Source: an uncultured bacterium
Lineage (GTDB): Bacteria; Krumholzibacteriota; Krumholzibacteriia; Krumholzibacteriales; Krumholzibacteriaceae
Reading direction: 5' to 3'
Assembly (NCBI GenBank): GCA_965371515.1
Contig: CBDUYR010000040.1
Location: forward strand, 1-25,803
Length of the DNA: 25,803 nt
Shown here piece by piece: positions 18,001-25,803 of the stretch. The position numbers are program-made. Every line of letters starts with the position of its first letter. The stretch's first letter is position 1.

Positions 18001-21000
18001 CTTTCATTCCACCCATCCCGGGCAAGGATCTGAATGGAGTCACGGGATTCAAGACGAGAGCAGATCTGAACAGGATCAACGAATTGATCGACTCCGGGCT
18101 CAGCAAGGCTGTTGTAGTCGGAGCGGGGGCCATCGGGATCGAGCTGGCTCTTGCCGTCAAGGCCAGGGGGGTCGAGGTCGATCTCGTCGATATGGAGAAA
18201 TCTGTACTGCCCAATCTGCTCGACAGTGAGATGTCCGAGCCGCTGTACGCAGAGCTGATCAAGGCCGGGATCAGGATCCACCTCGGGGCGAAAGTGACGG
18301 AGTTGCTGGGAGAATCGTCCGTCAAACAGGTCGTTCTGGATAACGGTCATGTGATTCCATTCGAATCAAGCCCGGTGAGCCTGATCGTCTTTACAACGGG
18401 GATGAAGCCATCAGTATCCCTTGTGAAAGACAGCGAAATGCAGGTCGGCAGGGACGGGATCATTGTGAACGAGAAGATGGAGACAAGCATTCCGGATGTC
18501 TTCGCCGCGGGAGATTGCGTTCAGTTCAAGAGCGGGATCACCGGAGAGCCTGTTTCCGGAAAACTCGCTACAAACGCCGTGCCGATGGCGAGGATCATAG
18601 GTTTTAATATGACCGGTCAGGACAGGGTCTACCCGGGCTTCTTCAATGGCGCCGCTACAAAGGTCGGACAGTATTTCGCCGGCGGGACAGGATATTCTGA
18701 AAGCGCCGCCACAAAAGTCGGCATCAAGACGGTCTGCGGGCACAGCGAAGTCACAACGCAGTTTCCGATCATGCCTGAAGCGAAGAAGATGCAGATCAAG
18801 CTAGTTGCCGAGCGAGATTCGCACCGACTTATCGGGGGCCAGATAGTCAGCGGAGAACCGGTCACAGGGAGAATAGACCTTCTCACCTTCGCCATACAGA
18901 ACAAGGCGACCGTTGAGGATCTGTCAAGCCTGAGTTATTCCGCCCAGCCCTATCAGTCTTTCTATCCCGCCGCGAACGGTGTTGTCCTCGCGGCTGAAGA
19001 TATCATCAAAAAAGAAGGTTACAAGGAAGTGTCGTAATTCGTACGTTTAGCTGATTCTCTGTCTTTGAAAGGTGGATCCCAGTTGGAAAATAAAAAGATG
19101 ACGATCGCACTTTTTTCAGGAAGCATCGACAAGCTGACCGGTGCGAGCATTATCCTGGCCGGCGCAGCCGCCGACGATATGGATATCGAGGTATACGTGT
19201 TGATGCAGGGCGCCCGCGCGTTCCTCAAGGATGTGGCCGGCGATCCTGAAAAGCTGGGTATGGCCGAGAATCCCGAGTTGAAAGAGGAGTTCCTCGCTTC
19301 TCTGGAGAGGCTCAAGGTCATGCCGTGGCTCGATTTTTTCAGGGAGGCGAAAGAACTTGCCGACGTGAAGATCTATGTCTGCGGGCTGGCTGGAAAGATC
19401 TGGGGCGGAGAAGAAGTCAGTGACTTTGTCGATCTGGTTGATGATATTGTCGGGATAGGAGAATGCATTACTTCGATGGAAGAATCCGACATTCATCTGT
19501 TCATCTAGCAGAAGGAGCTGTAATGGATCAGGAAGAACTGAAGAACCTCAAGGTGGACAAGACCGTGGATGCGAGAGCGACGGCTTGTCCCGGACCGCTT
19601 CTGGCGGCGAAAAAAGCAGTCAGAGAACTGGATTCGGCCCAGATCATGGAAATCCTGTCATCTGATGCCGCCACCAAGAGAGATGTCCCGAAATGGGCAC
19701 AGAAGAAGGGTCACGAATACCTCGGTACTGTTGAGGAATCGGGATACTTCAAAATCTATATGAAGATAAAATGACAGAAGAAAAAGACGGGAATAATATC
19801 TCGATCCTGGTTTTTTCGACAGAAAAGATCTCGGATCCCGCGATCGATCTTGCCGGGTTGCTGAAGCAGCACTACCCGCCTGTGGTCGATAATATCAGCG
19901 TTCCGTGTTCGAGCGCTATAAAGCCGAAGTGGATCATGCATGCGTTTGACAGGGGATTTGACGGCGTCTTTATCGCCGCCGACGGCACGGATTGCCCATT
20001 CGGCGAATCGTGTGCGGAGAAAACGGCCGAAATCATCTCGCGGACGCACGAATTGATGAAGGAAAAGGGTATGGACACGGCCAGGCTGAGAATGGCCGCG
20101 ATCTGCTCGGTCTGTTCGGCATCGTTTGTCAAGCAGGTAAAGAGCCTCGCTGATTATCTGGGTGAAACATCATGACCGGACAGACAGATAAGCTGGAATA
20201 CGATGTTGTCGTGATCGGGGGAGGCATCGCCGGGCAGGAATCGGCACTGAATATGGCCGATTCAGGCCTCAAGGTGCTGCTCGTCGAAAAGGACCTCTCC
20301 ATCGGCGGGAAAATGATCCACCTGAGCAAGGTCTTCCCGACCCTCGATTGCGCCGCCTGCATAACGACGCCGAAGGTCTCCGAAACAGCGAGGCATCCGA
20401 ACATCACGATCGTAACTAACAGCGAGATAGGCGATATTGAAAGGCTCCCCGACAATTCTTTAAGGGGCACGCTGACAAGACATCCGCGCTATGTCATCGA
20501 AAAGGACTGCACCGGAGGTGGAGATTGTGAGGAAGTCTGCCCGGTCATCGTCGAGGATCAGTTCCAGTACGGCATGGTAGGCAGGAAGGCCGCCTACGTC
20601 CCGTTCAGCATCGCCAATCCCAGGATCGCGACTATCGATATAGAGAACTGCATCCTCTGCGGCGCCTGCGAGAGGGTATGTCCGGCCGACGCCATCGATT
20701 TTACACAGAAGACCGAAAAACACGAAGTCATAGCGAAGACTGTGATTGTCGCGACGGGATTCAGGCTGTTCGACCATTCTATTATCGAGAATTACGGGCT
20801 GGGCAGATTCAGGAACGTTGTTACGTCGATGCAGATGGAGAGGCAGCTTGTTCCGACAAGGCCGTACAACAATGTTCTTCGGCCGAAGGACGGGAAGATG
20901 CCCGACAATATCGCGTATGTCCTCTGCACCGGGTCGCGGGATATAACGCTGGGCAATCCGATATGCTCACAGGTCTGCTGCATGTATTCGATGAAGCAGG

Positions 21001-24000: not shown

Positions 24001-25803
24001 TCTAACGGCAAGCTACGACTGGACGGGACTTTCGAAGAAATTCTATACATCGCTGGCCTGGGAGATAGGCGCCATTGCACTGCTCGCTTCTGTCGTCATC
24101 CTTCTCTTCGCCTTTTTCATGCCGTTCACGGCCGACCCGGCGACCCTGATCAACGCGGACGGTGGGGTGAAGATAAACAGCTTCGTCGAAGGGATGGAGC
24201 CCGAAACCTTCGTCAAGAGGATCGAGATCGGCGACTGGGTCATGGCGGCCGTTATCTCATTCTTCCTGATCTCGAATATCTTCAATATGTATCGGAAGAT
24301 AGTTCTCAGGGGCGGAAAGACGAAGATACCGCTTCGGCTCTACGTCACGGAAGCATGGAACCTGTTCTTCCATACCGCCACCCAGATAAGGTTCGCGAAA
24401 TGCAAGGACAAGACCTACTGGGCGCTGCACTGGCTGCTCATGTCCGGCTACGGCCTCATGTTTTCGATGATAGTGCTGTTTCTGCCGTGGTTTCAGACGG
24501 AAAGCATACATCCGGTCCTGCACCCGCAGAGATTAATCGGGTATTACGCGACATTCGGCATCCTGCTGGCCATAATCGTATGGTCCATACAGAGGATCCG
24601 GAGATCGGGAGAGAACCACAAGTATTCACATAAGACCGACTGGGCATTCCTCATACTGCTCTTCCTGACGACCCTGACCGGGATCCTCGTGCATATCTTC
24701 AGGATCAGCGGAATGGTCAGCGCCACATACTACATGTATGTGATCCATATCGCCATACTCGCGCCGATGCTCGTGATAGAGGTCCCGTTTTCGAAATGGT
24801 CGCACCTTGCGTACCGGCCGCTGGCCATCTATTTCACGAAGCTGGCCGAATCCGCCGCCAAACAATCCCGGTCATAATCCAGAACATTTATGCTATCATC
24901 CCCGGGGCGATGGTGTGTCCGCGCCTCCGCGCAGGACACTGGAGATATGGAAGCGATTTGTCATAACATTTACGGGCATGGTGAAACGATGAAAAGAAAT
25001 CTGACGATCAGCTTTACGGTTCTCGGGCTTGTTATTCTTACCTGGGCAGCGATGGCCGGGAATAAGCAGGGGTCGTCGATAAGGGTCGGGGTGTACAACG
25101 GCGATGGGGCCAGCCCGGCCTGCGTGATAGAGACGTTCGAGGCGCTCAGGATCGACAGCGGAATCGTGCCCTCGCTGATCGGTCCCAGTGATATCTATAC
25201 TGGCAGGCTCGCCAAGATCGATGTGATCGTATTCCCCGGGGGGAGCGGCAGCAGGCAGAACAACAGCCTGGGCAGCGGGTCGCACGGGAAGATCATTCGC
25301 TTCGTCCGGGAGAAGGGAAAGGGTGTCGTCGGCATCTGCGCTGGCGCCTACCTCGTGTCCGACTCTGAAGGTTATCCATGCCTCGGCCTGATCGGTATCG
25401 ACACGATAGACAGGGAGCATGACAAGCGCGGCAGCGCTCTCGTCGAGGTCTCGTTCACCGAAAGGGGCCTTACGATATTCCCCGAGATGAAGGAATTCAC
25501 GCACGGGTACATACAGTACCACGACGGACCGGTATTCGTTCCGCTTACCGGGGTCGAGAACGTCGCCTGCGAAGAACTTGCCGTAAACAAGAGCGATGTA
25601 CATCATACCGGTAATGCCCCGCCGGGGATGACGCCGGGCAAATCGTTTCTGCTCTGCGAGGAAGCGGGTGCGGGGAGGGTGTTCGCCTGCGCCGGCCACC
25701 CGGAGTCGACGACCGGCATGCGATGGATAGTGCCGCGCATGGTCCGGTGGGTTGCCCGCAGGGAGCTCGTCGGCTATCCGGCGGATGTCACGAGACCGGG
25801 GCT

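Follow-up and report, generated by a model that had tools for sequence, protein, structure and literature searches.

A type II QmoABC-like gene module linked to TusA and DsrE in an uncultured Krumholzibacteriaceae bacterium

Two loci in the genome of an uncultured bacterium of the Krumholzibacteriaceae (GCA_965371515.1) encode a type II QmoABC-like module, in which genes for the sulfur carrier TusA and a DsrE-family sulfurtransferase accompany an atypical MvhD (MvhD*), two HdrA-like flavoproteins and a QmoC-like membrane subunit. One locus lies in the window, the whole stretch of 25,803 nucleotides of contig CBDUYR010000040.1 (C40) analysed here, and the other on contig C7. Our data tentatively suggest, with a confidence just short of even, that MvhD* exchanges two electrons with TusA persulfide as its mid-potential partner, with menaquinone and ferredoxin or NAD(P)H as the two branches. 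The module is widespread and, judging from its genes, may allow anaerobes without a known sulfur-respiration pathway to exchange electrons with protein-bound sulfur.

Results

Gene content of the loci

The genes in C40 follow the order DsrE-TusA-MvhD*-HdrA1-HdrA2-wHTH-QmoC, all on the plus strand and with intergenic gaps of -4 to 17 b (Table 1), and the C7 locus reads TusA-ArsR-MvhD-902 aa-649 aa-92 aa-359 aa-DsrE. An earlier note on this DNA had described both loci, and our recomputation reproduced its C40 genes and coordinates, the C7 order with ArsR after TusA and DsrE last, and the identities between the paralogues (50.5% over 653, 58.2% over 280, 35.6-36.1% over 385 and 31.0% over 84 residues). 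Its statement that neither locus contains a hydrogenase, a formate dehydrogenase (Fdh) or HdrB was borne out as well, and neither a lipoate-binding protein nor a lipoylation gene is found among the genes called in the two loci. There is no CCG gene in the C40 or the C7:59-7587 locus; the CCG matches of the genome are located at C34, C5 and C7:61329-62060. The classical HdrCBA-MvhD-hydrogenase set was seen at C7:60744-67126, as had been claimed, with no TusA or DsrE gene beside it.

Table 1. Features of the C40 locus
Feature	Position	Strand	Basis
CoA-disulfide-reductase/NADH-oxidase-like flavoprotein	17682..19037	+	TIGR03385 E 4e-73, below cut-off; 45 b upstream of dsrE
DsrE-family sulfurtransferase	19083..19508	+	Pfam DsrE/DrsE_2; active-site Cys (ICG motif) kept
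TusA sulfur carrier, CPGP motif	19523..19774	+	Pfam TusA E 3e-21; ORF open from 19463, likely start 19523
MvhD* (atypical MvhD/FlpD)	19771..20175	+	residue pattern and predicted model superposed on MvhD
HdrA1, HdrA-like, 433 aa	20172..21473	+	FAD/TrxR core, bifurcation residues, HA4 cysteines, PTLDCxxC, inserted ferredoxin domain
HdrA2, HdrA-like, 651 aa	21470..23425	+	N-terminal and C-terminal (arm) Fe-S domains
Winged-helix protein (wHTH), 91 aa	23443..23718	+	homologues match HTH_5, PF0610-like_N, TrmB
QmoC-like membrane subunit, 384 aa	23723..24877	+	NF038018 match, 6 membrane helices, aligned His

Several neighbouring genes were considered as further components and rejected. The CoA-disulfide-reductase/NADH-oxidase-like gene, a candidate for NADH input, appears to be a local passenger rather than a general part, as it occurs in none of 80 loci within 3 kb upstream of MvhD* and is missing from the one C40-type locus examined in the same genus. 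For the ArsR protein of C7, a role as a BigR/SqrR persulfide sensor is unsupported: BigR is its best specific match but stays below the cut-off, what we take to be the second cysteine of persulfide sensors is missing, and the alignment of ArsRs neighbouring the module contains no such cysteine pair. YeeE genes occur close to MvhD* in 3 of 160 loci and rhodanese genes likewise in 3 (E<=1e-8), with a few additional weak matches, and neither is a core part.

A cassette on contig C75, which had been grouped with the two loci as a third paralogue sharing their gene order, turned out to be different. At its 3' end, C75 shares 55 b with the start of C68 and likewise with that of C69, and its HdrA2 ends in frame within these contigs, followed by FdhB-like, MvhD, HdrA and Flx-like genes where the genes for the 91-aa and 384-aa proteins would be. 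Moreover, its MvhD has the canonical cysteine pattern, its HdrAs do not fall within the C40/C7 clades, and its HdrA1, used as query, found no match at E<=1e-100 in four of four genomes of the same genus.

HdrA1 and HdrA2 differ in their bifurcation residues

HdrA1 of C40 contains the equivalents of K409 and E356, which have been proposed as markers of bifurcation (PMC12054007), together with the HA4 cysteines, a PTLDCxxC motif and the inserted ferredoxin domain, and is without the N-terminal and C-terminal arm domains. In HdrA2 the K409 equivalent is His and the E356 equivalent Ser, DCxxC is lost and the inserted ferredoxin domain is degenerate. This division is general: all 138 parsed HdrA1 sequences have Lys where K409 would be, as opposed to 2 of 125 HdrA2 sequences, and FPxxxCxxC is present in 140/140 versus 1/128, while the E356 position of HdrA1 (n=140) holds Glu in 95, Asp in 26 and another residue in 8 sequences, with 11 unparsed. 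The C-terminal ferredoxin domain of HdrA2 is conserved, with each cysteine kept in 67-69 of 70 sequences. In a flavoprotein tree of 60 rows, including three type I QmoA and three type I QmoB rows (all Bacteroidota), type I QmoA/QmoB (100/98), HdrA1 (100/100) and HdrA2 (100/98) form separate clades. The best explanation of these patterns is an asymmetric HdrA1/HdrA2 heterodimer with a single predicted bifurcating FAD on HdrA1. In HdrA1 of C7, a GltD/NfnB-like insert, flanked by motifs at residues 106 and 625, splits the inserted ferredoxin domain.

MvhD* has an altered set of cysteines

MvhD* lacks the N-terminal CxWC cysteines and the cysteine of GCHxGDC, retains C46 and C75, and gains C81 and C112-x-x-C115, so that presumably two of the four canonical [2Fe-2S] cysteines are lost. 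The predicted fold is unchanged from MvhD, as the model (pLDDT 89.5) superposes on 5odc_D with a Z of 20.4 and an rmsd of 1.3 over 127 residues. An atlas search with an MvhD* homologue returned FlpD clusters only. All five cysteines are kept in 160 of 160 loci, a count which is partly circular since ICSVC served as search pattern. In an unbiased HMM set, comprising the 79 full-span sequences of 150 representatives (71 partial ones were dropped), CxxC occurs in 11 of 13 sequences that lack both canonical cysteines versus 2 of 55 that retain both. Some distant MvhD* lose C46 and C75, and CxxC alone survives.

The five conserved cysteines would suffice for a re-liganded Fe-S cluster, so that the dithiol role is putative. 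MvhD* might instead receive electrons from a donor whose gene lies outside the locus (ferredoxin, a hydrogenase or Fdh) and relay them for bifurcation to menaquinone, with TusA and DsrE as accessories in cluster maturation or sulfur sensing. The retained fold and the conserved clusters of the HdrA2 C-terminal domain fit this explanation; this domain is the usual docking place of the donor, and its conservation suggests that another donor may still bind. Matches to the NiFe-hydrogenase family, many of them weak, are found in 35 of 50 hosts but are missing in the other 15, and canonical MvhD (one query) was found in 17 hosts and not in 33. Since, in addition, the distant MvhD* keep CxxC without C46 and C75, and the classical Hdr-Mvh set of the same genome has no adjacent TusA or DsrE, we consider such a relay improbable.

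The terminal subunit resembles QmoC

The winged-helix gene has a fixed place between HdrA2 and the terminal subunit (63 of 64 loci), and its product, which has no conserved Cys or His, is either a subunit or a regulator. For the last gene, the earlier note had listed a 360-384-aa protein with two 4Fe-4S motifs; both CxxCxxCxxxC motifs are indeed seen at residues 23 and 67 of the 384-aa protein, but it is more than an Fe-S protein, combining an N-terminal 2x[4Fe-4S] HdrC-like domain with six membrane helices predicted from hydropathy. It matches the QmoC family NF038018 over profile positions 5-360 of 360 with E 4e-53 and 181 bits, below the cut-off of 300, where a type I QmoC scores 384. H236, H342 and H361 align with histidines of canonical QmoC and are kept in 63/63, 56/63 and 63/63 homologues, respectively. 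The alternative of a divergent HdrBC is rejected, as the protein is predicted to be membrane-bound and has no CCG motif.

Among 104 loci with a readable terminal gene, the slot holds QmoC in 84, a single-CCG protein in 18 and HdrB in 2. In the 18 variants, HdrC is accompanied by a soluble protein that has a single full CCG motif (HDSC...CCGG...CPxC), and 17 of these variants have the NAD(P) insert; the NAD(P) port occurs in 24 of the readable loci. These variants bear on the model of the earlier note, in which a protein persulfide replaces the heterodisulfide as high-potential acceptor. A single CCG site resembles that of DsrK and HdrD, which act on protein-bound sulfur, the NAD(P) insert offers a possible donor, and the two loci ending in HdrC-HdrB point in the same direction. 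In C40, C7 and 84 of the 104 loci, however, this slot is occupied by QmoC and a CCG site is lacking, and tusA is linked to MvhD* and not to the terminal gene. The model is thus not upheld for C40 and C7 and is quite unlikely overall, but it may hold for the 20 loci ending in HdrC and a CCG protein, which could itself act on TusA.

TusA is constant beside MvhD*

Cys106 of DsrE (counted from the ORF start at 19065) is found in 44 of 44 homologues and Cys22 of TusA in 77 of 77, with C22, P23, G24 and P25 invariant across 80 aligned sequences. TusA adjoins MvhD* in 76/77 and 67/70 loci, from Bacteroidales to Caldivirga. As TusA remains constant beside MvhD* while the terminal subunit varies, its partner probably lies in the constant core of the module. 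The reading of the loci as bifurcating modules tied to TusA and DsrE, already proposed in the earlier note, is sustained by the bifurcation-competent HdrA and by this tight and wide linkage, though not in its grouping of C75. Our literature search found no account of TusA or DsrE tied to type II Qmo; Chernyh 2020, Appel 2021 or the supplement or discussion of PMC10504309 may hold one.

Distribution and host metabolism

Of 52 genomes in the order, this one included, 37 encode MvhD*, which matches the 36 of 51 that the earlier note gave for TusA near FlpD, and relatives of MvhD* occur in at least 528 GTDB stretches. The named host groups Bacteroidales, Krumholzibacteriota, Caldivirga and Vulcanisaeta are anaerobic, and comprise fermenters or sulfur reducers. 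AprA is present in 4 and DsrA in 1 of 50 hosts, and neither has a match above cut-off in this genome, which is 99.6% complete; the module is independent of AprAB. Matches to MenA or MqnC were obtained in 49 of 50 hosts, and Bacteroidales commonly have menaquinone genes anyway. This genome has MenA above cut-off but no MenB above cut-off, MqnC or HemB, so that the quinone precursor and haem must be scavenged if the complex uses them.

Discussion

In studied Hdr complexes, MvhD or ElpC forms the two-electron entry to the FAD of the other protomer, the inserted ferredoxin domain is an exit, and high-potential electrons leave via HA4 towards HdrC/HdrB (PMC12350162). Here, the entry at MvhD is without its usual donor, and tusA and the altered MvhD cysteines are located exactly there, which is why we place the persulfide at this entry. 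In the proposed mechanism, the mobile arm of HdrA2 and MvhD* would serve the single bifurcating FAD of HdrA1, with QmoC anchoring the complex to the membrane. The ports would be i) a high-potential one from the FAD via HA4 and the Fe-S clusters and haem of QmoC to menaquinone, ii) a low-potential one from the inserted ferredoxin domain of HdrA1 to ferredoxin, or to NAD(P)(H) where the GltD/NfnB-like insert is present as in C7, and iii) a two-electron, mid-potential one, where the CxxC of MvhD* would exchange with a persulfide on TusA that is loaded by DsrE. The complex would most likely confurcate the electrons of menaquinol and reduced ferredoxin to reduce carrier-bound sulfane sulfur to H2S, and fermenters would gain an electron sink in sulfur without Psr or Dsr.

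The potentials of menaquinone, ferredoxin and S0/HS- are about -74, -450 and -270 mV. With these values the two branches average about -262 mV, and the system is therefore near equilibrium and its direction not fixed by sequence; where NAD(P)H serves the low-potential port, as in C7, reduction would run about 70 mV uphill. The complex could thus also run oxidatively like sHdr, oxidising sulfide or TusA-bound sulfane sulfur and bifurcating the electrons to menaquinone and to ferredoxin or NAD(P)+, with detoxification or lithotrophic gain as the benefit. The pairing of TusA/DsrE with Hdr-like proteins is established for sulfur-oxidising sHdr systems (PMC11094781; PMC4175335), HdrA2 is without bifurcation residues, and the NAD(P) port of C7 and the 24 loci makes oxidation downhill on the potentials given above. 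We nevertheless regard this direction as unlikely, because neither a CCG subunit nor a called lipoate-binding protein is encoded in C40 and C7, the named hosts belong to anaerobic groups, and most of the 50 hosts lack AprA and DsrA, with which oxidation would continue.

Returning to persulfide exchange at MvhD*, a further-reaching and rather doubtful proposal is that type II Qmo represents an unrecognised class of bifurcating enzymes, a menaquinol + ferredoxin : protein-persulfide oxidoreductase, in which MvhD would have changed from a [2Fe-2S] relay to a dithiol, passing two electrons back and forth between FAD and the sulfur bound to TusA. If this holds, Bacteroidales, Krumholzibacteriota and Thermoproteaceae would perform a cytoplasmic, quinone-coupled sulfur respiration without Psr or Dsr. 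With TusA/DsrE firmly linked to MvhD* and one active site in the predicted heterodimer, a defined substrate and a site open to mutation (C112/C115) are at hand, so that the function of type II Qmo can be tested directly. In surveys based on standard marker genes, such a sulfur metabolism of common sediment anaerobes would stay hidden, as Apr and Dsr are mostly absent from the hosts examined, and scoring 'qmoABC' could miscount it as sulfate reduction.

Comparison with known systems

An NAD(P)H/FAD-binding insert like that of C7 HdrA1 is known from HdrL of Desulfobacterium autotrophicum and from the FdhAB-HdrL-MvhD cluster of Desulfurivibrio dismutans; the latter stands with FdhAB and Wood-Ljungdahl genes, and the passages of PMC12142623 devoted to it describe no TusA, DsrE or QmoC. 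The sHdr-LbpA system (PMC11094781) shares with C40 the encoding of TusA and DsrE together with an Hdr-like complex, but contains the CCG subunits sHdrB1/B2 and LbpA, where C40 has MvhD*, a bifurcating-type HdrA1 and QmoC; the sHdr passages of that paper make no mention of MvhD or Qmo. The C40 and C7 loci are also without the CCG subunits of sHdrC1B1AHC2B2 or sHdrB3. With HdrABC-MvhAGD/FdhAB/ElpABC of methanogens (PDB 5ODC, 7BKB, 8RVU), C40 has in common the HdrA core, K409/E356, HA4, the inserted ferredoxin domain and the MvhD fold. In contrast to these homodimers, it encodes a predicted heterodimer with one bifurcating site and a membrane anchor, lacks HdrB, hydrogenase, Fdh and ElpB, and has presumably lost two MvhD cluster ligands.

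Type I QmoABC resembles C40 in its two HdrA-family flavoproteins and in a membrane QmoC, where the three His positions agree. Its partner, however, is AprAB, and MvhD is fused C-terminally to QmoB, whereas MvhD* is a separate upstream gene with rearranged cysteines. Type II QmoABC of Vulcanisaeta moutnovskia and Ammonifex degensii was described with unknown function and a call for functional work (Neukirchen et al. 2023, PMC10504309, citing Chernyh et al. 2020). Like C40, it comprises an HdrA-like pair and QmoC and occurs with or without Apr/Dsr; in the sections of that paper describing it, no TusA, DsrE, MvhD or winged-helix gene is mentioned alongside. Its QmoAB are described as nearer to typical HdrA than to the QmoAB of bacteria; in our tree the flavoproteins of the module are distinct from type I, and the deep branches, with one or two classical HdrA rows, reach only 64/75.

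For V. moutnovskia, a sulfate reducer whose complex is listed as QmoABC (PMC10504309), the accessions are WP_013605692 for QmoC, one number skipped, WP_013605694 for QmoB and a further entry 5695, an order that fits QmoC-wHTH-HdrA2-HdrA1. Besides, the organism encodes MvhD* and a linked TusA, both are consecutive in V. souniana (BDR92757, BDR92758), and Caldivirga loci with 81-85% identical MvhD* read DsrE-TusA-MvhD*-A1-A2-wHTH-QmoC. Accession order and MvhD*/TusA homologues together point to the Vulcanisaeta 'QmoABC' being this module. That listing and the QmoC homology would favour a role as electron donor to APS reductase like canonical QmoABC, as assumed for Vulcanisaeta. Yet this is excluded for the present genome by the missing AprA, three examined hosts of the four with AprA carry their own aprBA-qmoABC (with a QmoC 25-28% identical to that of C40), and the qmo genes of V. 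moutnovskia form a syntenic block apart from sat-aprAB-dsr, which makes such a role highly improbable. Should the oxidoreductase proposal be correct, the 'QmoABC' invoked for sulfate reduction in Vulcanisaeta would primarily be a sulfur-carrier enzyme, which bears on how this genus supplies electrons to APS reductase.

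The module and its terminal subunit

The window belongs to a genome of 3.08 Mb (99.6% complete), and its closest named homologues come from Candidatus Krumholzibacteriota. As an earlier note had stated, seven genes form one locus on contig C40 (see table), and contig C7 carries a paralogous locus (TusA-ArsR-MvhD-902 aa-649 aa-92 aa-359 aa-DsrE), for which we reproduced the identities reported in that note. The C40 genes are spaced by -4 to 17 b. In the C7 copy, a GltD/NfnB-like NAD(P)-binding module sits within the ferredoxin domain of the first HdrA-like protein (HdrA1). The 384-aa protein, which the note described by its two 4Fe-4S motifs, resembles QmoC. 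Its match to NF038018 spans profile positions 5-360 of 360 (E 4e-53; 181 bits, below the cut-off of 300; 210 bits for the C7 copy), six membrane helices are predicted, and histidines of canonical QmoC align with its H236, H342 and H361.

Coordinates of the module and of further features in the same genome
Feature	Contig	Position	Strand
Module: DsrE, TusA, MvhD/FlpD, HdrA-like (433 aa), HdrA-like (651 aa), 91 aa, 384 aa	C40 (window)	19083-24877	+
Codon of HdrA1 residue 116	C40 (window)	20517-20519	
CoA-disulfide-reductase/NADH-oxidase-like gene	C40 (window)	17682-19037	
Two large secreted proteins	C40 (window)	6316-15603	
SufS-like/Moco-sulfurase-like class V aminotransferase	C84	6801-8216	
Haem o synthase	C67	2542-3417	

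Upstream in the window, the two secreted proteins have T9SS/FlgD-type C-terminal domains, and one is an M6-family metalloprotease. The CoA-disulfide-reductase/NADH-oxidase-like gene, which keeps its redox Cys, lies between a DUF134/Cys-rich pair and dsrE; the one same-genus locus read has no such gene. Contig C84 joins the start of C7 and places the aminotransferase (RTGCFCNPG motif) directly 5' of the C7-type tusA, as in both same-genus loci (L179, L181); it is possibly a source of persulfide from cysteine.

Conservation across genomes

Among the best 80 of at least 528 GTDB stretches, mostly from Bacteroidales and including Seramator thermalis, TusA lies directly 5' of the atypical MvhD/FlpD (MvhD*) in 76/77 loci with enough sequence and DsrE at most 1.7 kb away in 71/74, while the 64 loci with enough downstream DNA encode HdrA1 (64), the second HdrA-like protein HdrA2 (63), the 91-aa winged-helix protein (63) and QmoC (62). 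For the 80 best-matching of 480 metagenome stretches, the distance from TusA to MvhD* is at most 1 kb in 67/70. In the order, 37 of 52 genomes carry MvhD*. In many Bacteroidales loci (L007, L012, L023, L027, L068), a regulator with an N-terminal CxxC, judged by eye from its sequence to be Crp/Fnr-like, stands divergently before dsrE.

HdrA1 was readable in 140 loci of both sets. Its plain form is paired with QmoC (77), HdrC-HdrB (2), HdrC plus a single-CCG protein (1) or a cut or absent end (27), and the GltD-type form with a single-CCG protein (17), QmoC (7) or a cut or absent end (9). Because the loci are related, the locus counts in this section are not independent. Since TusA is constant while the terminal subunit varies, the partner of TusA is probably in the core of the complex. 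Eighteen loci (L111-L156) end in HdrC and a soluble protein with one complete CCG motif, with a GltD-type HdrA1 in 17 of them.

An MvhD with altered cysteines and a probable division of HdrA

The predicted structure of MvhD* has the MvhD fold (pLDDT 89.5; Z 20.4, rmsd 1.3 over 127 residues against 5odc_D, the MvhD chain of the methanogen HdrABC-MvhAGD structure). The protein has lost the cysteines of CxWC and the one in GCHxGDC, retains C46 and C75, and has acquired C81 and C112-x-x-C115, the latter pair being placed by the model between strand 106-110 and helix 116-133. All five cysteines are present in 80/80 best-match loci of the GTDB set and 80/80 of the metagenome set, counts that are partly circular because ICSVC is one scan pattern. 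In an unbiased check of 150 HMM representatives, of which 71 partial ones were left out, the CxxC occurs in 11/13 proteins lacking both canonical Cys, in 2/55 with both and in 0/11 with one, and several distant MvhD* members keep it though C46 or C75 is lost.

HdrA1 is devoid of the N- and C-terminal arm domains and has Lys and Glu at the positions of K409 and E356, DCxxC and the inserted ferredoxin domain, whereas HdrA2 has both arm domains, His and Ser at these positions (counted along the 5ODC alignment) and no DCxxC. Across all loci, Lys is found at the K409 position in 138/138 parsed HdrA1 but 2/125 HdrA2, and a DCxxC-type motif in 140/140 against 1/128, although these counts may take in a few flanking classical HdrAs, e.g. 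at L100. K409 and E356 have been proposed as bifurcation markers (PMC12054007), and a description of Hdr has the arm carrying the MvhD/ElpC cluster to the FAD of the opposite protomer as two-electron input, HA4 as the route out for the high-potential electron and the inserted ferredoxin domain as the anticipated exit (PMC12350162). Arm domains in HdrA2 and bifurcation residues only in HdrA1, taken with this arm mechanism, therefore suggest a heterodimer with a single working site, in which the jobs of one methanogen HdrA appear to be divided between two proteins. Residue 116 of the window's HdrA1, in the first ferredoxin motif, is Gly (GGT), where 74/74 homologues and a same-genus copy have Cys; this reflects either a substitution private to this sequence or an error in the assembly, and one cluster ligand would go.

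The locus on C75, proposed earlier as a third copy, is not a member: its 3' continuation, its canonical MvhD and the placement of both its HdrAs outside the C40/C7 clades of the tree all differ. C68 and C69, two contigs with 87.7% identity between them, both begin with the 55 b that close C75; across this overlap the C75 HdrA2 is completed in frame, and downstream of it come FdhB-like, MvhD, HdrA-fusion and Flx-like genes. The C75 locus is a second TusA/DsrE-linked cassette (ArsR, TusA, YeeE, rhodaneses, porin, DsrE, TusA, canonical MvhD and two HdrAs, both with the Lys kept).

Independence from Apr and a possible function

No AprA or DsrA was found in the C40 genome, and among 50 host genomes of unstated completeness, which account for 50 of the 80 loci, AprA occurs in 4 and DsrA in 1. 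In each of the three AprA hosts fetched, a separate aprBA-qmoABC is present, whose QmoC is 25-28% identical to that of the window. HdrA1 (24 rows, 100/100), HdrA2 (24 rows, 100/98) and type I QmoA/B, the canonical AprAB partner (6 rows, 100/98), form separate clades, the deep branches not being settled. The module is independent of Apr, and Apr as its partner is extremely improbable. At L087-L089, aprBA-qmoABC occurs in three Bacteroidota genomes in which no DsrA was found.

With parts, residues, linkage and this independence observed, the function would be read from synteny and residue patterns. QmoC would hold the high-potential port, facing menaquinone; MenA (27) and MqnC (22) matches, some below cut-off, do not overlap and together cover 49/50 hosts. 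In the C40 genome, MenA scores above cut-off, and an Rnf/Nqr subunit and a membrane CCG protein next to EtfAB are encoded as well. MqnC and a MenB above cut-off were not found, and neither was HemB, although a haem o synthase at cut-off is encoded. The low-potential port would be formed by the inserted ferredoxin domain or by the NAD(P) module within it. The two-electron port would have lost its hydrogenase/Fdh donor and have an MvhD rebuilt with the CxxC; tusA is encoded there, which would make TusA the partner. Canonical MvhD was found in 17/50 hosts. The mean of menaquinone (-74 mV) and ferredoxin (-450 mV) is -262 mV, near S0/HS- (-270 mV).

We tentatively favour reduction of a TusA persulfide by confurcation. 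Against it, the NAD(P) form is uphill in the reductive direction; operation in the oxidative direction seems unlikely overall. The donor-docking C-terminal clusters are also intact, and the five Cys of MvhD* could bind a cluster; that this cluster is re-liganded, with TusA/DsrE as accessories, is quite doubtful. A persulfide as high-potential acceptor best fits the CCG variants and is, for the module as a whole, likewise quite improbable.

Relation to type II Qmo

The core of the module is already in print. Neukirchen et al. (2023; PMC10504309), where they treat type II QmoABC, place it in Vulcanisaeta moutnovskia, Ammonifex degensii and organisms some of which have Dsr/Apr and some of which do not, and leave its role unsettled; in their V. 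moutnovskia table, QmoC (WP_013605692), QmoB (5694) and entry 5695 stand together in a block distinct from sat-aprAB-dsr. This species encodes MvhD* with a linked TusA, the two are consecutive in V. souniana (BDR92757, BDR92758), and the gene order is DsrE-TusA-MvhD*-HdrA1-HdrA2-winged helix-QmoC in loci whose proteins group with Caldivirga entries. The table accessions, the encoded proteins and the Caldivirga-like loci, rather than the V. moutnovskia locus itself, lead us to identify the module, by inference, as type II Qmo. A full-text literature search, with Chernyh 2020 and Appel 2021 outside it, brought up no account that links TusA/DsrE to the module. The module is real and strongly conserved, and as a variant of the known, uncharacterised type II Qmo it offers a substrate hypothesis that can be tested.
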